Shown: positions 14,887-52,100, numbered from the stretch's first letter. The stretch: 60,218 nucleotides of DNA from Acidobacteriota bacterium (GCA_050264575.1 JBLNGH010000279.1:1-60218); one strand, 5' to 3'. Notes: generated by a model not told the origin, from the sequence alone. Translations and numbers: made by a program.

Positions 14887-14896
14887 CGGCTCCGCC

Positions 14897-14934
14897 GAAC
14901 TTCAGACTTCGAACTTCAGACTTCGAACTTCGAA
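14897..14934. repeat. Tandem 14-mer gaacttcagacttc x2 plus gaacttcgaa (TTCGAA word family)
   Basis: Read directly from the sequence. It fills the convergent gap between the hydrolase stop (14886) and rluB, and it encodes the last codons of rluB (..SKFEV*). Confidence 0.9.
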
Positions 14935-18770: not shown

Positions 18771-18776
18771 CTAAAC

Positions 18777-18838
18777 TGGAATCTGAAATCTGGAATCTGC
18801 AATCTGATCGGGGAATCGGGCAATCGGGGAATCTGGAA
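18777..18838. repeat. Direct low-complexity repeat of AATC(T/G)G(G) words, about 8 units
   Basis: tggaatctgaaatctggaatctgcaatctgatcggggaatcgggcaatcggggaatctggaa fills the uvrC/protease spacer. Confidence 0.9.
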
Positions 18839-18842
18839 ACCC

Positions 18843-20774
18843 TTACGCGCCGCCGAAATGTTTGATGACGGCGTCCGCCGTTTTCGCCCCGACCGCGGCT
18901 TCGAGCTCCTGACGGCTCGCGCGCCGGACGCCGGCCACTGATCCGAACGTGGTCAGGAGCTGCTTGCGTCGCCGCGCGCCGATGCCGGGGACATCGTCGA
19001 GCGCCGACCGGAGATCGCGCCTGGTGCGGGAGCGGCGGTGGAACGTGATGGCGAACCGGTGCGCCTCGTCGCGAATCCGCTGGATCAATCGAAGCGCGCT
19101 CGACGCCCGCGGCAGCGCCAACCCCTCGACGCGATCGCGTGTGAAGAGCAGTTCTTCCTGTTTCGCGATGCCGACAGCCACGAGCCGATCGAGACCGACT
19201 TCACGCAGCGCCGCGTAAGCCGCCGTCAGCTGTCCCTTCCCGCCGTCGATCAGAATCAGGTCGGGGAAGGGGCCGCCGTGCTCGAGCAGCCGGCGGTATC
19301 GGCGAAAGACGACTTCATGAATGGCCGCGAAGTCGTCGGGAATCGATCTATCGATCGATCGCTCTATCGATCTATTTAAGGGCATCGTGTCAGCGTTCGG
19401 GAGCCGGACCTGCTTTTCGACAGGATGATCTTCACCAGATCGATAGATCGATGGATCGATAGATCGATTCAATCCTCTGATCTTGAATTTCCGATACTCG
19501 CCTTTCTTCATCCGGCCTTCGACGGCGACGACCATCGACCCGACCGTCTCGCTGCCCTGAAGGGTCGAGATGTCAAAGCATTCGATGCGCCTCGGGAGCG
19601 AGGGCAGCGCCAGCACCTCGCGGAGCTGATCGAGCGCTTCGAACGCGGTGCCCTCGCCTTCCGCGAAGTGCGACTGGTAAGCCAGCGACGCGTTTCTCGA
19701 CGCGAGCGACAGCAGACCCCGCTTGTCGCCGCGGCGCGGGACCTGGATCCGCACGCGCCGGCGCGCGCGCGCGCTGAGCCAGCTCTCGATCGCGTCCCGG
19801 TCCTCCGGCGGCAGCTCGGACGGCAGATGCACTTCGGGGGGAGGCTCGCGGTCCGCGTAGAACTGCTGTACCGCCGCCGTCAGCACATCGGTCTCCGAGG
19901 AGGCGGTGTCGCGGTCGGTCAGGAGCTCGCACCGGTCTACCACCCGGCCCCGACGGACCTGAAAAATCGTCGCGATGGCCCCTGCCGAGCCGACCTTGAC
20001 GCCAAAAGCGTCGCGATCGCCCATCGCCGGCGTCTCGACGGTGTTCCGGCGGTCGCGGACGGTCTCGATCGTGCGGATGGCGTCACGGAGATGGGCGGCG
20101 CGCTCGAAGTGCTCCTCGCCGGCGGCCGCCGTCATCTCGCGCTGGAGGTTGCGGATGAGCTCGTCCTGGCGGCCCTCGATGAGCAGCCGCGCCTGCTCGA
20201 CCGCGTGGCCGTACCGCTCGATGCTGCAGATCGTCTCCACGCAGGGCGCCAGGCAGCGGTGGATGTCGTACTCGAGGCACGGACGATCGCGCCGGCCGTC
20301 GATGATCTCGTTGCACGACCGGATGCCGAAGAACCGGTGAGCCAGGCTCATCGTCCGGCGCGCGACCGCGGCCGGCATGAAGGGGCCCGCATAGACGTTC
20401 CCGTCCTTCTCGACCCGCCGGGCGACGAGCAGGCGCGGCGCCCGCTCCGTGGTCGTGAGCTGGAGATACGGATACGTCTTATCGTCGCGGAGCAGGACGT
20501 TGAAGCGCGGATTGCGCTGCTTGATCAGCCGGTTCTCGAGGGCGAGCGCCTCGACGACGGAGTCGGTGACGACGTACTCCAGCGACGCGGCGTCGCGCAG
20601 GAGCGCGTCGTGACGCGGGCTGATCCCCTTCGCGCCGAGGTACGACCGCACGCGATCGCGAAGCACGCGGGCCTTGCCGACGTACAAGGTCTCGCCGGTG
20701 TCGTTCAGGAAGAGATACACGCCCGGTTGCTGCGGCAATCGCGCGATGCGGGCCTTGAGATCGTCAATCGCCAT
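18843..20774 (-). CDS. uvrC: Excinuclease ABC subunit C
   Basis: GIY-YIG motif (PGVYLFLNDTGETLYVGKA), UVR domain, ECFDIS...LILIDGGKGQL, and a C-terminal (HhH)2. It carries a 43-aa in-frame insertion (next feature). Confidence 0.95.
   Translation of the reverse strand: MAIDDLKARIARLPQQPGVYLFLNDTGETLYVGKARVLRDRVRSYLGAKGISPRHDALLRDAASLEYVVTDSVVEALALENRLIKQRNPRFNVLLRDDKTYPYLQLTTTERAPRLLVARRVEKDGNVYAGPFMPAAVARRTMSLAHRFFGIRSCNEIIDGRRDRPCLEYDIHRCLAPCVETICSIERYGHAVEQARLLIEGRQDELIRNLQREMTAAAGEEHFERAAHLRDAIRTIETVRDRRNTVETPAMGDRDAFGVKVGSAGAIATIFQVRRGRVVDRCELLTDRDTASSETDVLTAAVQQFYADREPPPEVHLPSELPPEDRDAIESWLSARARRRVRIQVPRRGDKRGLLSLASRNASLAYQSHFAEGEGTAFEALDQLREVLALPSLPRRIECFDISTLQGSETVGSMVVAVEGRMKKGEYRKFKIRGLNRSIDPSIYRSGEDHPVEKQVRLPNADTMPLNRSIERSIDRSIPDDFAAIHEVVFRRYRRLLEHGGPFPDLILIDGGKGQLTAAYAALREVGLDRLVAVGIAKQEELLFTRDRVEGLALPRASSALRLIQRIRDEAHRFAITFHRRSRTRRDLRSALDDVPGIGARRRKQLLTTFGSVAGVRRASRQELEAAVGAKTADAVIKHFGGA
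19341..19469. repeat. 129-nt palindromic low-complexity (ATCGAT-word) element inserted in frame in uvrC
   Basis: The arms at 19341-19373 and 19437-19469 are 31/33 complementary (aatcgatctatcgatcGatcgCtctatcgatct). A 63-nt spacer separates them. The element encodes NRSIDPSIYRSGEDHPVEKQVRLPNADTMPLNRSIERSIDRSI, which lies between KIRGL and PDDFAAIHEV. Confidence 0.85.
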
Positions 20775-21603
20775 GGGCTACGATCCGGCCGGGTTTCCGG
20801 TTGGCCTTCCTCGGACTCCGACCCTCGTGACATTTACCGGCGCTGTCGGGAAAGCGTTCAATTTCCCGCTGCGACTGATCATCGCCGCGTGCGTCCGGCT
20901 CCGGATCCATCCAAATATTCTGACCTTCACCGGGGTCCTCATCAACATCTGGGCCGGCTGGCATCTGGCGCACGGCGAGTTCCACATCGCGTTCTGGATC
21001 ATGCTCGGCGCCAACGTCTTCGACTTCATCGACGGCAAGGTCGCGATGGAAACCGGCAAGATGTCGAAGTTCGGCGGTTTCTGGGATTCGGTGATCGATC
21101 GATTCTCCGACCTGGCGCTCTCGGTCGGACTCATCTGCCTCTACTCGTCGCTCGGGCGCACCGACTACGTGCTCATCACGTCGATCGCGATGGTCTTCGC
21201 GACGATGACGAGCTACACGCGCGCGCGGGCCGAATCGCTCATCCCGAAATGCAAGGTCGGCTTCATGGAGCGGCCGGAGCGCATCGTGCTCTTCATGATT
21301 GGCGCGGTCACCAACCGCATGGCCGCGGTCATGTGGGTCATCGGCGTCCTGTCGATCGTGACGGTGATCAACCGCATTCAGTACACGTATCTCGAGCTCA
21401 ACAACCGGCCGCAGCCGCGGCGGTCGGGGGTCATCGGCTTTTTCGTCCGCGCGTTCTACTGGACCGACGAACGCGCCACGCTGCCGTACGACCTCTGGGT
21501 CATCGCCATTCTCGCGTTCGTCTGGCTCACACCGCCCGACTGGCTCGGCGATCCCATGGCCGTCGGCCAACTCGGACTTTTCCAGTACCTGGCAGGGCGA
21601 TGA
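20773..21603 (+). CDS. CDP-alcohol phosphatidyltransferase family protein
   Basis: DFIDGKVAMETGKMSKFGGFWDSVIDRFSD (DG..A..8..G...D...D-type motif) and multiple TM segments. The ATG at 20773 overlaps the uvrC start; a downstream GTG (about 20827) is possible. Confidence 0.78.
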   Translation: MGYDPAGFPVGLPRTPTLVTFTGAVGKAFNFPLRLIIAACVRLRIHPNILTFTGVLINIWAGWHLAHGEFHIAFWIMLGANVFDFIDGKVAMETGKMSKFGGFWDSVIDRFSDLALSVGLICLYSSLGRTDYVLITSIAMVFATMTSYTRARAESLIPKCKVGFMERPERIVLFMIGAVTNRMAAVMWVIGVLSIVTVINRIQYTYLELNNRPQPRRSGVIGFFVRAFYWTDERATLPYDLWVIAILAFVWLTPPDWLGDPMAVGQLGLFQYLAGR

Positions 21604-22739
21604 CGACGCTGGCCGGTTCGCGGATCGGCCGGCGCCAGTGGCTCGCCGCCGCGACGCTGCCGGCCGCGAGCGCGATCCTGAGCGGGTGCGCCAGCCGCGC
21701 CGCGGGGGCGCGGCCGGCTGCCACCGCCGGGTGGCTGCCGGATCACAGACGATTCGCCCGCGTCCGGGTCAGCCCCGACCGGGTCATTCGGACCGTCGTC
21801 GGGCTGCGGCCGTTCCGGCGTGCCGGATTCCGGGTCGCCGTCGACAAGATCGACGACAAGGTCGTCGTCCACAACTACGGGCACGGCGGAGGCGGAGTGA
21901 CCCTCTCGTGGGGCACCGCCGATCTGGCAGCCGAACTGGCGCTTCAATCGGGCCTGCGCCGCTTCGCGGTCATCGGGTGCGGCGCCGTCGGGCTCGCAAC
22001 GGCGCGGCTTCTGCAGCAGCGCGGCTGCCGCGTCACGATCTACGCGAAAGACCTGCCTCCGAACACGACGTCGAACGTCTCCGGCGCCCAGTGGGGGCCG
22101 TTTTCCGTCGTCGACCGCGACCGTCGCACGCCGGAGTTCATGACCCAGTTCGTGCGCGCGAGCCGGTTTTCCTATCGCTACTTCCAGAATCTCGTCGGCG
22201 AGCGGTACGGCGTCAAGTGGATCGAGAACTACGTCCTCTCTGACGAGCCGTCCGCGCCGGCGCCGCAACCCGAAGTGGAAGGCCTGCTGCCGGAGTCACG
22301 CGAACTGCGCCCAGGCGAGCATCCGTTTCCAGCGCGGTACGTGCGAATGTTTGCTTCGATGTTCGTCGAGCCGCCCGTCTATCTCCCGGCGCTCGAGGAA
22401 GACGTCCGGCACGCCGGCGCCGGGATCGACGTCCGTGAAATCCGCGATCGCACCGAGCTGGCCAGCCTGGCGGAACCGGGCGTCATCAATTGCACGGGCC
22501 TCGGCGCGCGAGCGCTCTTCAACGACGAGGAGATGCTGCCGATCAAAGGGCAGCTGCACGTGCTGTTGCCGCAGTCCGAAGTGGATTACCTGGTCCTGGC
22601 GCCCGACCTCTACATGTTTCCGCGGCGCGACGGCATCCTCCTCGGCGGGACGTTCGAGCGCGGCGAGTGGTCACTCGAGCCCAACCACGACGCCGAGAAG
22701 CGCATTCTCGAGGGGCACAGCCGGATCTTTGCTTCTTAA
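21600..22739 (+). CDS. D-amino-acid-oxidase-like FAD oxidoreductase with a Tat signal, a lipobox and apparently permuted segment order
   Basis: RIGRRQWL twin-Arg motif and LSGC lipobox. VVHNYGHGGGGVTLSWGTA precedes the Rossmann motif FAVIGCGAVGLATARLL. An ATGA overlap links it to the upstream gene. Confidence 0.8.
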   Translation: MTTLAGSRIGRRQWLAAATLPAASAILSGCASRAAGARPAATAGWLPDHRRFARVRVSPDRVIRTVVGLRPFRRAGFRVAVDKIDDKVVVHNYGHGGGGVTLSWGTADLAAELALQSGLRRFAVIGCGAVGLATARLLQQRGCRVTIYAKDLPPNTTSNVSGAQWGPFSVVDRDRRTPEFMTQFVRASRFSYRYFQNLVGERYGVKWIENYVLSDEPSAPAPQPEVEGLLPESRELRPGEHPFPARYVRMFASMFVEPPVYLPALEEDVRHAGAGIDVREIRDRTELASLAEPGVINCTGLGARALFNDEEMLPIKGQLHVLLPQSEVDYLVLAPDLYMFPRRDGILLGGTFERGEWSLEPNHDAEKRILEGHSRIFAS

Positions 22740-22757
22740 GTTCGAAGTTCGAACTTA
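22737..22757. terminator. 21-nt near-perfect palindrome taagttcgaaGttcgaactta between convergent genes (TTCGAA word family)
   Basis: It equals its own reverse complement except at the central base. It starts at the oxidase stop codon and ends 8 nt before the tdk stop. Confidence 0.6.
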
Positions 22758-22764
22758 GGCTGTC

Positions 22765-23331
22765 TTACCCCTGACCGAGGCTTGGATCGAAACAGTGCCG
22801 GCAGCGCGCTTCGTACGTGCCGGACGCGCCGACGAGTACGCGCTCTTTCGAGGCCACGAGGCGCTGGGTATGGTTGGCCGGACCGCCGCAGACCATGCAG
22901 ATCGCGAGCGTCTTCGTGATGTACTCGGCCGTCGCCAGCAGCTGGGGCATCGGCTCGAACGGCTTGCCGAGGTAGTCCTGATCGAGTCCGGCCACGATGA
23001 CGCGCTTGCCCTGTCGCGCCAGTTCGGCGCACACGGCCGGGAGCTCGGCATCGAAGAATTGCCCCTCGTCGATCCCGACCACTTCGGTGTCCGCGCGGAC
23101 GCGTTCCGCCAGCTGCCGTGAATTGCCGACGCTCTCCGACGGAATCTTCATCTCGCTGTGCGAGACGATTTCGGCGCTGCTGTAGCGATCGTCGATCGCC
23201 GGCTTGAAGATCTGCACCCGCTGCCGCGCAATCTGCGCGCGCCGCAGCCGGCGGATGAGCTCTTCGCTCTTGCCGCTGAACATGCTCCCGGTGATGACTT
23301 CGATCCAGCCGGATTTGGGGGACTGTTCCAT
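22765..23331 (-). CDS. tdk: Thymidine kinase
   Basis: P-loop [11 protein letters not shown] and a C-terminal zinc ribbon (CMVCG...CRHC). Confidence 0.95.
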
Positions 23332-23333
23332 AG

Positions 23334-23440
23334 CAAACTTAGAACTCAGAACTTAGAACTCAGAACTTGAACTTCGAACCCGACAGGTGAACATCGTCGG
23401 GTTATTAGTTCTGAGTTCAGAGTTCTGAGTTCTAAGTTTG
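23334..23440. repeat. Compound inverted repeat: 34-36-nt AACT(C/T)AGA-word arms around an inner GC hairpin
   Basis: The left arm caaacttagaactcagaacttagaactcagaact pairs with the reverse complement of the right arm (32/34 match). The inner stem is acccgac/gtcgggt (23378-23402). The element lies between the efp stop and the tdk start. Confidence 0.85.
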
Positions 23441-23452
23441 TTCCCGTACTCA

Positions 23453-24016
23453 CTAGACACGTGACAGGTACTCGCCGGTTTCCGTGTTGATGCGGATGAC
23501 GTCGCCGGTGCTGATGAACGCCGGCACGCTGACGACCAGCCCCGTCTCGAGCGTCGCGGGCTTGACCTGCGCCGAGGCGGTGGCGCCTTTGATCCCCGGT
23601 ACCGTGTCGGTCACCTTCAGATCCACCGTTTGCGACAGGTGAATGCCGACCGGCTCCGATTCGTAGAACTCGATGTTGATGAGCGTTTCGGGCAGCAAGT
23701 ACAGCGCGCTCTCGCCGAGGATTTCGCGGTTGAGATGGACCTGCTCGTACGATGACGTGTCCATGAAGTGAAACAGATCGCCGTCGCGATACAGGAACTG
23801 CATCTCCCGCTCGTCCAGCGTCGCCCGTTCGACATCGTCTTCCGACCGGAACTTGTGATCGATCAGACGGCCCGAGCGGATGTCTCTCAGCCGGCTCTGG
23901 ACGTGGCCGCGCTTGTTGCCCGGCGTGATGTGGTACAGGTCGAGGACGCGATAGAGATTCGCGTCAAGCTTGATCAGCATGCCCTTGCGAAGTCTGGTGG
24001 CCTGAATGGAGCTCAT
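23453..24016 (-). CDS. efp: Elongation factor P family protein (atypical tip loop)
   Basis: LRKGMLIKLDANLYRVLDLYHITPGNKRGHVQSRLRDIRSG...GIKGATASAQVKPATLETG...GEYLSRV. Confidence 0.88.
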   Translation of the reverse strand: MSSIQATRLRKGMLIKLDANLYRVLDLYHITPGNKRGHVQSRLRDIRSGRLIDHKFRSEDDVERATLDEREMQFLYRDGDLFHFMDTSSYEQVHLNREILGESALYLLPETLINIEFYESEPVGIHLSQTVDLKVTDTVPGIKGATASAQVKPATLETGLVVSVPAFISTGDVIRINTETGEYLSRV

Positions 24017-24077
24017 AAGACGTGTTTTTCACGGTACTCCGAACTTCCCATCGTAACACGACCAATTTGCCGCTTTC

Positions 24078-24497
24078 ATGCGGAACCGCGGTAGTATCGT
24101 TCTTATGCCTTGGGATCCGATGCGCGACCTGCTCACCATGCAGGAGCGCCTCGAGAGCCTGTTCGGCCGGACGATGCCCGGTTGGGTGCCCCCGGTCGAC
24201 TTGTCCGAACTGACGGATCGATACCTGCTCACGGTCGAGCTGCCCGGCCTCAGCCGGGAGGACGTCCACATCGACTTTCTCGACGGCACGCTGACGATCC
24301 GCGGGCAGCGTCCGGGTCAGAGCTGCTGCCCCGAGCGGTATCAACAACTCGAACGCGGCCAGGGGCAGTTCTCACGATCGTTCCGGTTCGCGACGGCGGT
24401 GGACTCGGAGTCAATTTCGGCGGACCTGGCCGAAGGCGTGCTGACCGTCCAAGTACCGAAAGCCACAATTCCCGATCGCCGGATCGAGATCGCGTAG
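24078..24497 (+). CDS. Hsp20/alpha-crystallin small heat-shock protein
   Basis: Alpha-crystallin core PPVDLSELTDRYLLTVELPGLSREDVHIDFLDGTLTIRG...GVLTVQVPK. An alternative ATG at 24105 (MPWDPMRDLL) is at least as plausible. Confidence 0.85.
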   Translation: MRNRGSIVLMPWDPMRDLLTMQERLESLFGRTMPGWVPPVDLSELTDRYLLTVELPGLSREDVHIDFLDGTLTIRGQRPGQSCCPERYQQLERGQGQFSRSFRFATAVDSESISADLAEGVLTVQVPKATIPDRRIEIA

Positions 24498-24506
24498 GCC
24501 CAAGCC

Positions 24507-25640
24507 ATGGGAATCAAAACCGCTGCCGCCGCGCTCATTCTGGGCGGCTTCGTCGCCGGCATGGTCGTGACCGGCCGCTTCCACGTCACGGCCCCGAGCG
24601 TCGCGGCGCCCACACTCACAGATCAGGCGCGGCCCGCTTCAGTTCCGGCGTCCCTGCCGGCACCCGGTACGCTGCCCGACCTCTCGAGCGTCGCCGAACG
24701 CGCCCTCAAAGTCTCCGCGAACATTTCGTCGACGACGATCAGGCAGTTGCCGAACGATCCGTTCTTCCGGTTCTTGTACGGTGACCAGGCCCAGCAGTCG
24801 CAAAGCGTCGGGTCTGGCGTCGTCGTCTCGCCAGACGGATACGTGCTGACCAACACGCACGTGATCGGCTACGCCGGCGCCGACATACGCGTGACGCTGC
24901 CGGACGGCAAGGAACTGCCGGGCAAGCTCATCGGGATCGACGACATCAGCGATCTGGCCGTCGTGAAGGTGAACGCACAAAACCTGGATACGCTGCCGTG
25001 GGGCGACTCGAGCAAGCTTCGCGTGGCTGAGTGGGTCCTGGCGGTTGGAAATCCGTTTCAGTTGAGCGGCACCGTCACCCTCGGGATCGTGTCGACCGTC
25101 AATCGATCCGCCACGCAGGTCGGCGGCTTCACCGACTTCATTCAGACCGACGCCGCGATCAACCCGGGTAATTCGGGCGGCGCGCTCATCAACAGCCGCG
25201 GCGAGCTCGTCGGCATCAACACGATGATCTATACGGAGACGGGCGGCTACCAGGGAATCGGCTTCGCGATCCCGTCGAACATGGCCCGGCGGATCATGGA
25301 CGAGCTCAAGACCAACGGCCGGGTGCCATGGGGCTCGATTGGCAACATCCAGTGGATCCCGGTTGACCGGGCGACCGCGCGCGCGAACGGATTTGGCGAC
25401 GTGACCGGCGCGTATGTGCGAAGCCTCTACCGCAATTCGTCGGCCTATCAGGCGGGCCTCCAGCCCCGGGATCTCGTCGTGGCCGTGAACGGAGACCCGG
25501 TCACGGATCCCTCGCAGATTAACCGGGTCGTCACCGCTTCCAAAGTCGGCTCATCGGTGAAGCTGGAAGTCATCCGCGACGGGAAGCGCCAGACGCTCAC
25601 CGTGCCCGTCGTCAGCCGTCAGCAGCAGCGAATCAGGTGA
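24507..25640 (+). CDS. HtrA/DegP-family serine protease with a PDZ domain
   Basis: Catalytic triad contexts TNTHVI, DLAVVKV and GNSGGALIN. N-terminal TM anchor and C-terminal PDZ-like segment. Confidence 0.9.
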   Translation: MGIKTAAAALILGGFVAGMVVTGRFHVTAPSVAAPTLTDQARPASVPASLPAPGTLPDLSSVAERALKVSANISSTTIRQLPNDPFFRFLYGDQAQQSQSVGSGVVVSPDGYVLTNTHVIGYAGADIRVTLPDGKELPGKLIGIDDISDLAVVKVNAQNLDTLPWGDSSKLRVAEWVLAVGNPFQLSGTVTLGIVSTVNRSATQVGGFTDFIQTDAAINPGNSGGALINSRGELVGINTMIYTETGGYQGIGFAIPSNMARRIMDELKTNGRVPWGSIGNIQWIPVDRATARANGFGDVTGAYVRSLYRNSSAYQAGLQPRDLVVAVNGDPVTDPSQINRVVTASKVGSSVKLEVIRDGKRQTLTVPVVSRQQQRIR

Positions 25641-25643
25641 GAT

Positions 25644-25754
25644 GTGAAATTGTGATGTGGTGATGTCGTGATGTGTGATTTGAGACCATCATGGCCCGTC
25701 CGAGGACAAGCGTTTTGAAATCACCAATCACCAATCACCAGATCACAAATTCAC
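25644..25754. repeat. Long imperfect inverted repeat of GTGATG-type words (40-nt arms, 31-nt spacer)
   Basis: The left arm is gtgaaattgtgatgtggtgatgtcgtgatgtgtgatttga. The reverse complement of the right arm is gtgaatttgtgatctggtgattggtgattggtgatttcaa. The element fills the convergent htrA/mpg gap and overlaps the last mpg codons. Confidence 0.85.
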
Positions 25755-46495: not shown

Positions 46496-48994
46496 ATGAA
46501 GAACCTTCGATTTGCCCTGCGTGCGCTGTTCCATGCGCCGTTCGTGACGATCATCGCGATCCTGTCGCTGGCGCTCGGGATTGGCGCCAACACGGCCATC
46601 TTCTCGCTCTTCAACCAGCTCCTGCTGCAGCCCCTTCCGGTGCAGGAACCGTCCCGGCTGGTGAACCTCGGCGCGCCCGGCCCGAAGGACGGATCGACGT
46701 CCTGCAATCAGGCTGGCAACTGCGATGTCGTCTTCAGCTACCTGATGTTCCGCGACCTCGAGCGCGAGCAGAAAGTCTTCACGGGCATCGCCGCGCATCG
46801 CATCTTCGGCGTGAACATCGGCTTCGAGGGGCACACCCTCACGGGCGAGGGGATGCTCGTCTCAGGCAGCTACTTCTCAGTGCTCGGGCTGACGCCGGCC
46901 CGCGGCCGGCTGATCGACACCAACGACGATCGCACGGCGGGCCAATCGCCCGTCGCGGTCCTGGGGTATGACTACTGGCGCACGCGCTTCGCCGAGAGCC
47001 CGGCGATCGTCGGCAGCACGCTCGTCGTGAACGGCCAGCCGATGACGGTCGTGGGCGTCGCACCGCGCGGATTTCGTGGAACGACGAAAGGCAGCCGTCC
47101 GCAGATTTTCGTTCCGATCACCATGCGCGGCGCGATGGAGCCGCCGTTCGCGGCGTTCGAGAATCGCCGAAGTTACTGGGCCTATCTTTTTGCCCGGTTG
47201 AAGCCCGGCGTCTCGATCGACGAAGCGCGCCGCGGCATCAATCAGCCCTACCAGGCGATCATCAACAGCGTCGAAGCGCCGCTGCAGAGCGGCGTGAGCG
47301 AGCAGACGATGGCGCGCTTCAAGGCCAAGCAGGTCACGGTCGATCCCGGCACGCGCGGACAGAGCGACATTTTCGAGGAAGCCAGCGCGCCGTTGACGCT
47401 CCTGCTTGCGGTGACGACGGTCGTGCTCCTGATCGCGTGCGCCAACATCGCGAATCTCCTGCTCGCGCGGTCGGCCGCGCGCGCGAGCGAGATGGCGGTG
47501 CGGTTGTCGATCGGCGCGAGCCGGGGGCAGCTCGTGCGGCAGCTCCTGCTCGAGTCGTGTCTGCTCGCGCTGTTCGGCGGCGCCGCCGGTCTTCTCGTCG
47601 CGCGGTGGACGATGGCGCTGATCATGTCGCTGCTGCCGGCCGACGCGGCAAACGTGATTCAGTTCGAGCTCGACGTCCCCATCATGCTGTTTGCGGCCGC
47701 GCTCTCGGTAGGAACCGGTCTGCTCTTCGGCCTGTTCCCGGCTCTGCACAGCACCCGCCCGGATCTGGCGGCCACGCTGAAGAATCAGGCCGGCCAGCCG
47801 TCGGGCGCGCGATCGGCCGCGCGCTTCCGCCGGTGGCTCGTGGTCGGACAAATCATGCTCTCGATGGGGCTGCTCGGCGCCGCCGGGCTTTTCACCCGCA
47901 GCCTCATGAACGTCAGCAAGGTCGATCTCGGCATCGACGCGGACCGCGTGGTCACGTTCATGGTCGGGCCGCGCCGGAATGGGTACACGTTCGACCGGTC
48001 GCGCGTGTTCTTCGAGCGGCTCGAGGACGAGCTGGCGGGGATGCCCGGCGTGGTCACCGCCGCCGCCGCGCGCGTGCCGCTGCTCGCCGGCAGCAATTCC
48101 AACAATGGGGTTTCCGTACAGGGCTTCGAGGCCGGACCGGACACGAATACCAGCGCCAGCTACAACGAGATCAGCCCGGGATATTTCCGGACGATCGGCG
48201 TGCCGCTGCTGGCCGGCCGCGACTTCACGCGCGCCGACAGCCTGAAGACGGCCAAGGTCGCGATCGTCAACGAAGCGTTCGTCCGCAAGTTCAAGATGGG
48301 CCGCGACGTCGTGGGCAAACGGATGAGCCGATCCAAGGGCAACGGACCGCTGGACATCGAGATCGTCGGCCTGGTGAAAGACGCCAACTACAGCGAGGTC
48401 AAGGCCGTCGTGCCGCCGGTGTTCTTCGTGCCGTACCGGCAGAACGAGCAGATCGGCGGACTGGCGTTCTACGCGCGGACGCAGGGCAACGCCGAGGAGC
48501 TCGCGCGCAGCATTCCACCGGCCGTGGCGCGGCTCGATCCGAATCTTCCGGTGACCGAGCTCCGGACGATCCCGCAACAGATTCAGGAGAACGTGTTCCT
48601 CGATCGATTCATCAGCGTAATGTCGGCGTCGTTTGCCGCGCTGGCGACGCTGCTCGCGGCGATCGGCTTGTATGGCGTCCTGGCCTACACGGTGGCGCAG
48701 CGGACGCGCGAGTTCGGCCTGCGGATGGCGCTCGGCGCCGCGCCCACGCGTCTGGGCGGGCTCGTCATGAAGCAGGTCGTTTGGATGACGGCGATCGGCG
48801 GCGCGTGCGGACTTGCCCTGGCGATCGGGGCCGGGTTCGCGGCCCGGTCTCAGCTCTTCGGCATGGTCGCGTACGATCCGCTCGTCCTCGGGTTGGCGGC
48901 GATCGTCCTGGTGCTCGTCGCGCTCAGCGCGGGACTGGCGCCGGCGATCCGCGCGTCGCGGATCGATCCGATGCGCGCGCTCAGATATGAATAG
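46496..48994 (+). CDS. ADOP-type duplicated FtsX/MacB-like ABC transporter permease
   Basis: The ATG at 46496 gives MKNLRFALRALFHAPFVTIIAILSLALGIGANTAIFS. Two MacB-periplasmic/FtsX modules; the protein ends RIDPMRALRYE. Confidence 0.85.
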   Translation: MKNLRFALRALFHAPFVTIIAILSLALGIGANTAIFSLFNQLLLQPLPVQEPSRLVNLGAPGPKDGSTSCNQAGNCDVVFSYLMFRDLEREQKVFTGIAAHRIFGVNIGFEGHTLTGEGMLVSGSYFSVLGLTPARGRLIDTNDDRTAGQSPVAVLGYDYWRTRFAESPAIVGSTLVVNGQPMTVVGVAPRGFRGTTKGSRPQIFVPITMRGAMEPPFAAFENRRSYWAYLFARLKPGVSIDEARRGINQPYQAIINSVEAPLQSGVSEQTMARFKAKQVTVDPGTRGQSDIFEEASAPLTLLLAVTTVVLLIACANIANLLLARSAARASEMAVRLSIGASRGQLVRQLLLESCLLALFGGAAGLLVARWTMALIMSLLPADAANVIQFELDVPIMLFAAALSVGTGLLFGLFPALHSTRPDLAATLKNQAGQPSGARSAARFRRWLVVGQIMLSMGLLGAAGLFTRSLMNVSKVDLGIDADRVVTFMVGPRRNGYTFDRSRVFFERLEDELAGMPGVVTAAAARVPLLAGSNSNNGVSVQGFEAGPDTNTSASYNEISPGYFRTIGVPLLAGRDFTRADSLKTAKVAIVNEAFVRKFKMGRDVVGKRMSRSKGNGPLDIEIVGLVKDANYSEVKAVVPPVFFVPYRQNEQIGGLAFYARTQGNAEELARSIPPAVARLDPNLPVTELRTIPQQIQENVFLDRFISVMSASFAALATLLAAIGLYGVLAYTVAQRTREFGLRMALGAAPTRLGGLVMKQVVWMTAIGGACGLALAIGAGFAARSQLFGMVAYDPLVLGLAAIVLVLVALSAGLAPAIRASRIDPMRALRYE

Positions 48995-49004
48995 GAACCT
49001 GTCA

Positions 49005-49141
49005 GGGCAAAGGGCAGAGCGTAAAGGGCAAAGGGAGGGTAAGAGGGTAGAGGTAACGAGGAGAGTTTCTGCGATCGACACAGGACCTCTGCCCTTTCAC
49101 CTTTGACCTCTCCTCTGCCCTTTGCCCTCTGCCCTTTGCCC
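49005..49141. repeat. Long imperfect inverted repeat of GGGCAAAGGGCAGAG-type words (50-57-nt arms, 30-nt spacer)
   Basis: The left arm is gggcaaagggcagagcgtaaagggcaaaggg.... The reverse complement of the right arm is gggcaaagggcagagggcaaagggcagagg.... The element fills the whole convergent gap between the permease and the M14 gene. Confidence 0.85.
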
Positions 49142-52100
49142 TTACTTCGCGTCCAGCTTCCTCCCCGCGTTCAGATTGTCGAAGTTCAGCACCGTGTTGA
49201 ACACGAGGAAATAGCTGCCGATCGTCTCGCCGCGCCAGATGGGATTGTTCGCGAAGAGCACGACGTGCCCCTTCTCCACCGGGACGTCGACCGCGACGGG
49301 ACGCTGCGCGATATCGCCGCCGCCCTGCAGCAGCCCGGACACCAGCAGCTCGTTCTGGTCCGCGAAGCGCAGCGCGACGCGAGGCCGGAACTCGGGCGGG
49401 ATGATGTTGAGCGGATTTCGCAATTGCTCCTCATTCGGAAGCGTGTACTGCCACGGCCGCGCCGCCGGCGGACGCGTGGTCAGCTCGTTGCGCGGATCGA
49501 GCACCGGTCGTCCCTGAACGACGTCGGGATCATCCGGCGTGCCGCGGCCGGTCGCGCGGCTGGCGGCGCCGCCGCCCCGGCCTCCCCCGCCACCGCCGCC
49601 GCCCCCGCCACCGCCACCGCCACCGCCACCGGCGCCGATGTTCACGCTGAAGCTCGACCCGTTGTCGCTGTACATCGCGAGGCTGTCGCCGATGCCGTAG
49701 ACGATCGGACTCGCATCGTCGACGAGCTTCGTGCGCAGGAGCGAGCCAACCACGCGCGAGCCCGTCCCCGCATTGTTCGTCGTCACGCCGTGGGTCAGCC
49801 CGTATTGCACCGCGAAATTCGCGCTGCTGCCGGCGCCGATGAACACGCCGCCCTGCCTGACGAAGTCATCGAGATGCTTGAGACCGTCCCAGCCGAGCCC
49901 CGGCCGGATGTCATCGGTCTGCGCCCAGTCGCCGATGTTGGGCGTGTCGGGTGAGTTCTTCCAGGGCATCGGATTGCGGAACATCGGCATCCCCTCGATC
50001 ACCTGGAGCCCTCCGCCGCCGCCCGGCGCGAAGATGATCACGTCGTACTTCGCGCGCAGATTCGGCTCGCGCGCCACATCCTGCGTGCTGATGTACGAGA
50101 ACGGCATGCGCAGGGTGTCAAAGGCATAGCGCCACCAGCCTTCGGTCTGCGTTCCCTGCCACGTGTGCATGAGCGCGACGCGCGCGGCGCGCGCCGGATG
50201 CGTCTTCACGGACGGCGCCGCAGACAGCGCATAGGCCTTGAGACCGATTTCCGTCGTGGCTTTGTTCAAGTCGGCGGCGCTGACCTTGCTGATCAGGAAC
50301 GACCCACGGTTGAACTTCGTGCCCTGCGCCTCGAACGGCTCCTCGGCGACCTGAAAATCCGCATCCTTCAATTGATACCGCAGCGTCACCAGCGCGTTGT
50401 CCGCATTGTGATTCACGGCGAACAGCGTTGCGCCGCCGCCATTCACGGCGTTCGCCGGCATCACACCGCCCGGCGCGGCGACGGGACCCTTCACGGCTTC
50501 CATCGCAACGTCGAGCACTTTCGGATCGAGAACGCGGTATGCCTGGACCTGGAACCCCTCGGGGACCGTCCAGCCGGTATCGTCGTACGGGTTCTGCTGC
50601 GGATCGTTCGGCGCCCAGTACTGATAGTCGAGCAGCGCATCGGCGATGCGCGAGTACGGCTGATCCATGCGGACAATGTAGGTGCCGGCGGGAAACTGCC
50701 GGGTCTCGAAGGGCGGTGCGGCCGGCGGCGCGTCTTCCGCCCCGGCGCCGGCTCCGGCGCCGCCTGCGCCCTGTGCCGCGCCACCACCTGCCGCGCCACC
50801 ACCACTTGCCGCGCCACCACCACCTGGCGCGCCTCCTCCGGCGGCGCCCCCGCCTCGACCACCGCGGCCGGCGCCGGCCGCCCGGCGAACGGGAACCTGT
50901 GCGGAGAACTCAGCCGTCGCGCGCGAGATCTCGACGCGCTGTTTCTGCAGCACGCGCAAGAGCTCCGCTTGCGCGCCCAACCGGGGATCGTTGGCCGGCA
51001 GGATGTAGGCGGACGGGCCTTCGGTCTTCGCCTTCAGAATCGATCGCTTGCTCTTCTCGTAGAAATTCCGCAGGAACAGCAGACGGTTGTTGGCAAAGTG
51101 ATTCAGCGAGATCAGGAGTCCCGTCTGCTCGTAATTGTTGTTGTTGCGCAGCGACCACATGACGCGCGGCAGCGGCGGATTCTGACGGTACCAGGTGCGC
51201 GATGTCTGGTTCGGCTGGAGCGTTCGCTCCTGCGTGTCGGCGCTGCCGCTGTTGCCGAACGTCTCGTACAGCCGGCTGATGCCGTTGTGCGTCGCCGCGA
51301 CGAACATCAGGTAGCCCGGCGACCAGGTGTCGAACGTTCCGAACGCGAAGACCCCCGGCATCCCCATTCGCGTCATCTCGTTGACGTTGTTCCAGCCGAT
51401 GAGGTGCCACTCGTTCGTGAGGATCGGATCGAGCCAGGCGTTGTACGGTCCGTCGCCGATCGTGTTGTCGTACAGGTACGGCACCGATTCGTGCAGATCG
51501 TGGAGCACCTGCGCCTTCCAGTCGACGAACGCGTTCATGACGTTCTCGGTGAGCTTCAACGTCACGCCCATCGCGTCGCGGTTGTTGTCGTGCGCGACGT
51601 ACTTGCCCCAGTAGATCGGACCCGGCACGGTGCGGTCGGGGTACTTCTTGCGGTAGTTGTAGAGATCGACGACGCGATCGCGTCCGTCCGTCTCGACGAT
51701 GGGCGTGATCAGCGTGATGAGGTTCTCGCGGATGTTCCGCACGTACGGACTGTCGTCGACGGCCAGCCGGTACGCGAGCTCCATGAGCGCCGTCGGCGCG
51801 CCGGCTTCGGGCGCGTGAATCGTCCCGGTGATGTAGTACACGGGCGCGGCGCGCTTCGCGATCTCGTCCGCCAGCGCATCGTTCATGCTCATCGTCCGCG
51901 GGTCGGCCAGCTTCGCGAGATCGGCTTTGTTCTGATCGAGCCTGGCCATCAGGGCTTCGGACGCGACCGCGACCGCGATCATCTCGCGCCCTTCTTCCGA
52001 TTTCCCGATCGAGTAGACCTTGACGCGCGGCGTGGATTTCGCCAGCAGCCGCATGTACTCGTTCACCTCTTTGGTGTACGGCAGCTTGCCGGGCGCCCCG

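Follow-up and report, generated by a model that had tools for sequence, protein, structure and literature searches.

A heptamer-armed hairpin between efp and tdk of a soil acidobacterium, probably a gene-less member of a cassette family resembling 23S rRNA intervening sequences

Between the genes for elongation factor P (efp) and thymidine kinase (tdk) of a soil acidobacterium lies a long hairpin with arms of tandem 7-nt words, which is probably a gene-less derivative or member of a family of cassettes similar in design to the intervening sequences (IVS) of 23S rRNA. The DNA analysed, here called the window, is a stretch of 60,218 nucleotides (GCA_050264575.1 JBLNGH010000279.1:1-60218) that constitutes contig C279 of the source genome, G000; coordinates given without a contig name are positions in it. 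G000 is a metagenome-assembled genome (MAG) of the order Vicinamibacterales (6.05 Mb, 682 contigs, 65.6% GC), and its relatives are Vicinamibacterales of the phylum Acidobacteriota. Two genomes of the same genus, G001 and G002, share about 70-90% nucleotide identity in genes with it and are syntenic with it over the whole window. The arms of the hairpin differ little from those of a cassette on contig C430 that carries a gene, and inverted arrays of such words flank four-helix-bundle loci; on this basis, the most probable reading of the hairpin is that it derives from a cassette of this kind and has no gene.

The hairpin (23334-23440) takes up 107 nt of the 121-nt spacer (23332-23452). Its two 34-nt arms lie 39 nt apart and are complementary at 32 of 34 positions (94%). 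The original prediction had placed the arms at 23334-23367 and 23405-23440 with the same degree of pairing; the pairing and arm A are as it gave them, but arm B begins 2 nt later, at 23407. Arm A reads CAAACTTAGAACTCAGAACTTAGAACTCAGAACT on the + strand and pairs with 23407-23440, and arm B, as its reverse complement from the outer end, reads CAAACTTAG AACTCAG AACTCTG AACTCAG AACT, which includes the rare variant word CAGAGTT. Both are composed of AACTNAG heptamers, and Tandem Repeats Finder (TRF) detected period-7 arrays in each (6.4 copies at 23336-23379 and 4.6 copies at 23407-23438), so the region is at once a tandem repeat and a palindrome, as had been proposed. The inner hairpin described at 23378-23402 is also present, with ACCCGAC (23378-23384) and GTCGGGT (23396-23402) around an 11-nt loop; the 39-nt interior contains no open reading frame (ORF). 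Since efp and tdk are both on the minus strand, the transcript order is efp, 12 nt, the hairpin, 2 nt and the ATG of tdk. RNA of this strand folds at -62.6 kcal/mol, compared with a shuffle mean of -29.3 (z = -9.23).

With up to two mismatches, AGAACTYAGAACT occurs nine times in the window against 0.58 expected, and none of 100 shuffles reached nine. The GC content falls to 0.475 in the 200-nt bin 23300-23499, against roughly 0.56-0.71 in the rest of the 22000-25000 profile; this AT shift had been noticed at first inspection, as had the spurious ORF tails created by the words, and ORFs with the tails KFEVRT, KFELRT and NLELRT are indeed in the ORF list of the window. No Rfam family matched the hairpin above its gathering threshold, and the sub-threshold matches were to generic long-hairpin (miRNA precursor) models only. 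The product of efp has relatives up to 79% identical across Vicinamibacterales.

A profile search of G000 with PF05635 (23S_rRNA_IVP) gave 15 matches, 11 of them above the Pfam cut-off. Six of these loci are flanked on both sides by inverted arrays of the standard polarity, each of a different word family that also occurs as gene-less hairpins, while several of the other matches lie at contig ends. One of the six, at C430:15589-16130 (about 540 bp), has AACTNAG arms that enclose a 119-aa gene, the product of which gives 87 bits with TIGR02436 ('four helix bundle protein') and matches PDB 2RLD with E = 5e-22. The left arm of the efp-tdk hairpin matches that of C430 at 32 of 34 positions (identical over the 32 nt of words) and the right arm at 30 of 34, and the rare CAGAGTT word stands at the same place in the right arm of both. 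Compared over the outermost 32 nt of both arms, the efp-tdk copy agrees with C604 at 63 of 64 positions, with C430 and C529 at 62 and with C406 at 61, against a family-wide mean of 51.7 +/- 6.2 of 64 for all 630 pairs. Seven dispersed copies share 60-63 of the 64 arm positions, and the efp-tdk copy belongs to this young subfamily, which includes the C430 cassette. The arms carry asymmetric haplotypes (A = TA CA TA CA, B = TA YA CT YA), and the pair is seen in both orientations, a pattern that is the signature of copying from a common source and not of growth in place. A junction motif in the interior of the efp-tdk copy, TTCGAACCCGAC, also occurs in the family members C473, C406, C586 and C604 and in a G001 cassette (L157).

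The association of word arrays with four-helix-bundle genes extends beyond G000. Across seven genomes, G000 and six relatives, such genes occupy 15 distinct loci, 12 of them with an array on each side; the C430 protein has its closest homologue (66% identity) in another genus, encoded between AACTTAG arms. In a sample of the phylum, arrays of 7-9-nt words adjoin 27 of 30 four-helix-bundle genes on at least one side, 18 of the 30 with a clear inverted partner, and each gene has its own word. AACTNAG arrays are patchy in the order (18 of 151 genomes); PF05635 matches occur in all 18 of these genomes and in 106 of the 151 overall, a comparison that ignores phylogeny. In the literature searched, we found no paper that connects PF05635/TIGR02436 genes to heptamer-repeat arms.

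The efp-tdk hairpin is one of many. The original prediction had pointed to the same architecture at three or more other loci of the window, and these are confirmed (Table 1); its suggestion of a genome-wide element class, not a one-off terminator, likewise agrees with a survey of G000. TRF arrays of at least 3.5 copies number 553 for period 7 and 506 for period 8, against 23 for period 5 and 7 for period 10. An ungapped inverted partner, at least 75% complementary and within 150 nt, accompanies 173 of 613 period-7 and 196 of 558 period-8 arrays, against 1 of 203 period-6 arrays. The merged set comprises about 267 hairpins, built from 7- or 8-nt words of more than 30 families, with medians of 104 nt for length, 34 nt for the loop and -58 kcal/mol for fold energy, an abundance that does not bear out a coincidental local palindrome. 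About 36 paired elements belong to the AACTNAG family. Arm polarity is fixed in every word family (26:0 for AAAGGGC, 25:0 for ATCGATCT, 21:0 for GGTGATGT and 26:0 for AACTYAG, with 14:0 as a further example), the outer ends fall at one word phase (37 of 52 AACTNAG arms; 44 of 50 ATCGATCT arms), and two or three bases are conserved there, as in GC/AACTTAG...CTAAGTT/GC, where the strokes mark the ends of the words. The median arm length is about 33 nt for both 7-nt and 8-nt words (32-34 nt, or 4.3-4.6 units). Such arrays are present in about 22% of the G000 intergenic gaps of at least 30 nt.

Some side observations concern the counts themselves. AACTTCG, the word most often scored as 'unpaired' (71 arrays), includes the palindrome TTCGAA, which makes its array 6/7 self-complementary and able to fold without a partner arm; the count of unpaired arrays overstates the true number of single arrays for this reason. 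Of the 1364 contig ends of G000, 25 are no more than 60 nt from a word array, and several matches to four-helix-bundle genes are at contig ends (C341, C42, C322, C57 and C501). Contig ends near arrays indicate that the repeats break short-read assembly, so copy numbers are underestimated. At C150:2135-2400, AACTTCG-type arrays of opposite polarity to the norm lie on both sides of a tRNA gene (anticodon CAT, assigned by eye); they are probably halves of two neighbouring elements.

The sharing of arms between distant loci bears on the idea that each hairpin grew where it stands, by slippage that expanded a local 7-nt seed and quasi-palindrome correction that mirrored it, without copying from one locus to another and unconnected with the four-helix-bundle cassette. 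In many bacteria, simple-sequence repeats of 7-nt units occur in excess, for which slippage has been put forward as the cause (PMC4692102). Further, unit numbers vary among the AACTNAG copies, and the efp-tdk spacer has been remodelled between close relatives. At the site of the uvrC hairpin of the window, G002 has solely a 12-nt palindrome, AATCGATCGATT, the sequence that results when both outer ends of the full G000 hairpin are joined; it may be counted in favour of growth from a seed, and it also has the appearance of an empty site or of a product of precise excision. However, hundreds of loci draw on the same set of roughly 30 words, with ends that are sharp and fixed and a single polarity in each family, the seven dispersed copies have in common an asymmetric A/B haplotype with a rare variant word, and the same arms flank the gene on C430 and its closest homologue in another genus. 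Growth in place is thus an unlikely origin for the efp-tdk hairpin.

How a cassette family could give rise to the efp-tdk hairpin may be outlined as follows. The unit of the family would be two inverted arms of roughly 33 nt made of tandem 7- or 8-nt words, and the full-length form would have the same arms around one four-helix-bundle gene (PF05635 / TIGR02436, S23p / Avd-like) outside rRNA. The element would be copied as an arm pair, with its centre remodelled quickly by breakage at the palindrome centre or by internal deletion, and with word units gained or lost by slippage. That near-identical arms surround unrelated centres suggests a pace of remodelling in the centres well above the mutation rate of the arms, and the known instability of palindrome centres could lie behind this. 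Self-folding, which takes it out of the efp-tdk message, may be the reason why the element is tolerated: with the 107 nt looped out, the efp stop and the tdk start would be 12 + 2 = 14 nt apart across the base of the helix, a gap within the range of the 11-47-nt spacers of element-free relatives. On the model of IVS, such a long, near-perfect stem is a likely substrate of RNase III, cleavage by which would separate the efp and tdk messages, and the hairpin is plausibly a site of such processing. At this locus it is probably selfish or neutral.

Several points weigh against a cassette origin. The interior of the efp-tdk copy has no significant similarity to that of C430, and the loops of gene-less copies do not match extant cassette interiors; only a short junction motif, TTCGAACCCGRC, is common to the efp-tdk copy, other copies and a G001 cassette. 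Simple internal deletion of an extant cassette is therefore unsupported, and the idea that loops are deletion remnants was rejected since no loop matched a cassette interior significantly. Two four-helix-bundle paralogues, C609:10554-10838 and C497:3381-3644, have no flanking arrays on either side, apart from a weak 2.3-copy array 23 nt to one side of the former. No copying enzyme was identified: G000 has no match to the RVT_1 reverse transcriptase, and none of its six Y1_Tnp genes adjoins a word hairpin. Nor was a target-site duplication seen: in six families, direct matches between flanks (k = 1-4) were no more frequent than expected by chance. Over 40 cassettes, similarity of the protein does not correlate with similarity of the word (Mantel r = 0.05; 572 of 5000 permutations reach r, p about 0.11). 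The 23S rRNA genes of G001 and G002 (2991-2993 nt against a model of 2925 positions) have no large insertion and the G000 assembly has no 23S gene, so the link with IVS rests on design only. Lastly, RNase III cleavage, co-transcription of efp and tdk and neutrality are points that we infer. As to the two paralogues without flanking arrays, they are mutual nearest relatives (48% identity), distant from the array-flanked proteins, and they may form a separate sub-family.

Other ways of making or moving such elements were considered and set aside. Long-range inverted array pairs, as candidates for composite elements, for the most part surround housekeeping genes of ordinary kinds (aldolase, microcompartment shell proteins, a tRNA synthetase, a major facilitator superfamily transporter), and many are simply two neighbouring hairpins; no four-helix-bundle remnants were found in the gene-less long array pairs. 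The fixed polarity and variable centres had prompted the idea of addition, telomerase-like or templated by a reverse transcriptase, where the centre of a palindrome has broken; G000 lacks a reverse transcriptase, and the shared arm haplotypes argue for copying of whole pairs. A setting like that of Avd, the accessory protein of diversity-generating retroelements (DGRs), was likewise not found, RVT_1 having no match anywhere in G000.

The hairpin is not conserved at the efp-tdk locus, since the spacer differs among relatives. G002 has AACTNAG arms with an unrelated loop, and G001 has a 126-nt spacer without words; G015 has AAGGCCC arms, G030 has AACTGAA arms and many relatives have only 11-47 nt. 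The comparison that the original prediction called for thus found the same words in G002 and other words or empty spacers elsewhere. A word array follows efp in about 12 of 43 relatives of the order, each with different words. A closer relative, whose EF-P is 95% identical over the portion that its contig covers, retains remnants of words, alignable with the G000 arm, without a strong hairpin, and the spacer folds at -30.7 kcal/mol (z = -0.9). A Vicinamibacterales MAG (L008, DATBJJ010000024.1) has a run of at least 10 uninterrupted GGGTTCAN octamers directly after efp, up to the contig end. More generally, at sites of G000 hairpins G001 and G002 often have an empty short spacer, a hairpin of other words or a single array. 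Array density is about 175-195 per Mb in G000 and G002, 100 in G001, 40 in another genus of the family and 15-20 in two other families. The word-armed elements are fast-evolving and turn over quickly between related genomes.

A second possibility, that the words are binding sites, would give the arms a function. Avd is a nucleic-acid-binding pentamer, and about five word cores per arm could be bound, on DNA or RNA, by a pentameric four-helix-bundle protein or another protein, with a role for the host in gene boundaries, nucleoid organisation or mRNA fate. The word is conserved within a family with one position free, that position co-varies little between arms (37 of 69 matches against 29 expected) and arm length is constant near 33 nt. 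Xcc0516 of Xanthomonas and Avd, both relatives of PF05635, are homologous (PMC10053308). Five reciprocal-nearest protein pairs share their word at 6/7 or 7/8 positions, and a sixth has related AATCTGG-type arrays. The test for co-evolution between protein and word over 40 cassettes is non-significant, so specific recognition of the word by the four-helix-bundle protein is unsupported. Occupancy of spacers is not conserved between congeners either, and the S23p protein of Coxiella has been suggested not to be made in vivo (PMC4990558). A binding function that maintains the hairpin for its host is accordingly improbable.

A terminator or attenuator that ends the efp transcript, perhaps of the hairpin-only ('I-shaped') kind and possibly bidirectional in a high-GC lineage, is suggested by the great stability of the stem, by a palindrome that reads alike on both strands and by the position of the class. 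Genes were called with a home-made codon-usage caller (5288 genes, 90% coverage). Among 215 intergenic hairpins, 136 lie in same-direction, 57 in convergent and 22 in divergent gaps, the respective baselines being 3151, 716 and 739. Hairpins are enriched in convergent gaps and depleted in divergent ones, the latter making up 16% of baseline gaps and 30% of intergenic length, and they begin at a median of 5 nt downstream of a stop codon and end 20 nt upstream of the next start. On the other hand, there is no T-tract: the class has a mean of 2.8 T in the 10 nt past the stem, sense and antisense alike, and past the efp-tdk stem the sense strand reads GCUAUGG, with no U-tract. The tdk ATG is 2 nt past the stem, and a consensus scan upstream found no promoter-like (sigma-70-like) site. 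RNA stability does not differ between sense and antisense strands (76 versus 58, p = 0.51), a copy lies inside uvrC, and close relatives have no hairpin, or a decayed one, in the efp-tdk spacer. A canonical terminator was rejected, as the consensus scan gave one weak terminator-like match, inside an arm, against 1.6 expected; RNA-level strand selection was rejected too, sense and antisense folding energies being equal. The efp-tdk hairpin is not a classical intrinsic terminator, and termination by other means is an unlikely explanation of it.

Finally, a repetitive extragenic palindromic (REP) or REPIN-type element mobilised by a REP-associated tyrosine transposase (RAYT, Y1), or a conventional miniature inverted-repeat transposable element (MITE), is very unlikely: the element is a dispersed, multi-copy intergenic palindrome with defined ends, and G000 has six Y1_Tnp (IS200/RAYT-like) genes (C151, C319, C113, C269, C61 and C192; several with YHV..RGN / HYHL motifs), but these genes are unassociated with hairpins, the arms are tandem words and not REP units, no target-site duplication accompanies them, interiors are not conserved, and the one gene found enclosed by arms of this kind does not encode a transposase. 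As for the terminal repeats that a MITE shares with an autonomous, transposase-encoding element, the arms here are shared with a gene-bearing cassette, the gene of which encodes a four-helix-bundle protein with no known transposase activity.

The features of the efp-tdk spacer and the related elements of the window are collected in Table 1.

Table 1. Positions in the window of the efp-tdk hairpin, its neighbouring genes and the related word elements.
Feature	Position	Strand	Description
efp, elongation factor P, 187 aa	23453-24016	-	Stop TAG 23453-23455; upstream gene of the pair; from ORF list
Linker, efp stop codon to stem base, 12 nt	23441-23452	-	From sequence and fold
Arm B	23407-23440		3' arm on + strand, 5' arm in the efp-tdk transcript
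Interior ('loop')	23368-23406		Degenerate words (TGAACTTCGA) and inner GC hairpin
Arm A	23334-23367		5' arm on + strand: CAAACTTAG AACTCAG AACTTAG AACTCAG AACT
tdk, thymidine kinase, 188 aa	22765-23331	-	ATG 23329-23331, 2 nt from stem end; from ORF list
Mini-palindrome of AAGTTCG words (AAGTTCGAAGTTCGAACTTAG), related word	22738-22757		Between converging stops of the 21600-22739 gene and tdk
ATCGATCT (8-nt) word hairpin	19340-19470		Same architecture; in frame inside uvrC
GTGATGTG / CACCAATCAC word hairpin	25651-25750		Same architecture; absent at orthologous spacer in G001 and G002
ARAGGGC word hairpin	49001-49145		Same architecture; orthologous G001 spacer 30 nt, empty

Single arrays lie at 14896-14934, 18776-18833 and 22738-22753 of the window. 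At the spacer orthologous to 49001-49145, G002 has a hairpin region of more than 300 nt with different words. On its contig C22, at the orthologues of 22740-22765 and 48990-49142 (L107-L109), compound hairpin regions of more than 300 nt have outer AATCTGR arrays around inner GGGGAATC arrays; the same nesting flanks a four-helix-bundle gene on G000 contig C251. Both congeners lack, at the orthologous position, the D-amino-acid-oxidase-like gene that stands at 21600-22739 between an upstream + strand gene and tdk, G001 having an 80-nt gap there and G002 a 330-nt region made entirely of AATCTGG / GGGAATC-type words.

Heptamer arrays have been described in other bacteria. An excess of intergenic heptamer simple-sequence repeats was noted by Mrazek et al. 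(2007, as cited in PMC4692102). Rehm and colleagues reported convergent GGGAATC arrays in Xanthomonas campestris and X. axonopodis and GGGGA(C/T)T arrays in Nostoc (Rehm et al. 2015, PMC4692102). The Xanthomonas arrays have 7-nt units, mostly about four per array, and form 70-75 convergent, stem-loop-capable pairs per genome; about 90% are intergenic, much nearer the end of the upstream gene and rare between divergent genes, and arrays of this type vary in length and sequence between close species (PMC4692102). The present elements resemble these arrays in unit size, in inverted pairing with constant polarity, in position and in turnover, and have 8-nt units as well. Unlike the single G-rich Xanthomonas word, which is read as forming G-quadruplexes, there are here more than 30 families, many without G-tracts; AACTNAG, having none, cannot form a G-quadruplex, and G-rich words are confined to some families, such as GGGGATCT. 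For the Xanthomonas arrays, no connection with a four-helix-bundle gene is reported (PMC4692102).

The IVS of 23S rRNA offer a parallel for the gene-bearing form. That of Coxiella burnetii is 428 nt long and has an S23p ORF between the strands of a 28-bp terminal stem, inside which RNase III cuts; ORF-bearing IVS are known in Coxiella and Leptospira and ORF-less ones in Salmonella, Yersinia and Campylobacter (PMC4990558). Terminal inverted repeats with a stem of about 28-34 bp (34 nt here, 28 bp in Coxiella), a cassette form that encloses one PF05635 ORF alongside ORF-less hairpin versions, a sporadic distribution and a GC content below that of the host are features common to both. The 23S rRNA IVS are regarded as selfish, and their stem is cut by RNase III (PMC4990558). 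The efp-tdk copy differs from ORF-bearing IVS in having no PF05635 ORF, whereas the near-identical-armed C430 cassette has one. In contrast to IVS, which occupy helix 9, 25 or 45 of the rRNA, the present elements are in mRNA spacers and occasionally inside genes, and their arms are tandem 7/8-nt words, in hundreds of copies per genome and many word families. PF05635 proteins are homologues of Avd and of Xanthomonas Xcc0516, the latter a pentamer according to the title of a paper cited there (PMC10053308). The PF05635 proteins of the present cassettes stand alone, unlike Avd, which in a DGR lies beside a reverse transcriptase and template/variable repeats.

Numerous small palindromes placed at the ends of genes are also typical of REP sequences, bacterial interspersed mosaic elements (BIMEs), REPINs and the Rickettsia palindromic elements, the last of which insert in frame into genes, as does the uvrC copy here. 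Unlike REP/BIME/REPIN sequences, the word hairpins are not associated with RAYT genes, have tandem-word arms and belong to many unrelated word families in one genome. Eukaryotic foldback transposons have long inverted arms of short tandem repeats, a variable or absent middle and variable arm length. Their arms are much longer and some encode a transposase, and no sequence relation to the word hairpins is expected.

A wider proposal can be put forward tentatively, although we think it rather unlikely to hold as a whole. The heptamer repeats of bacteria (Xanthomonas, cyanobacteria and Acidobacteriota), their hairpin forms and the 23S rRNA IVS might constitute one element class, the only gene of which is Avd-like. 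Arms of about 33 nt, with five word cores at 7-nt spacing, would then be cis sites for copying or maintenance by a pentameric protein together with host repair or RNase III, without a transposase or reverse transcriptase, and most gene-less hairpins would be non-autonomous offspring.

Two old puzzles, the heptamer repeats (noted in 1990 and 2007) and the 23S rRNA IVS with an S23p ORF, may thus share an answer. The concrete evidence is an arm pair identical at 62 of 64 positions to that of an S23p/Avd-like cassette, and a design of inverted arrays around a gene that holds across Acidobacteriota. On the practical side, the arrays create spurious ORF tails and can mislead predictions of terminators and small RNAs. 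With the hairpin placed in this family, binding of the protein to its word, cleavage of the stem by RNase III and movement of the cassette become testable questions.

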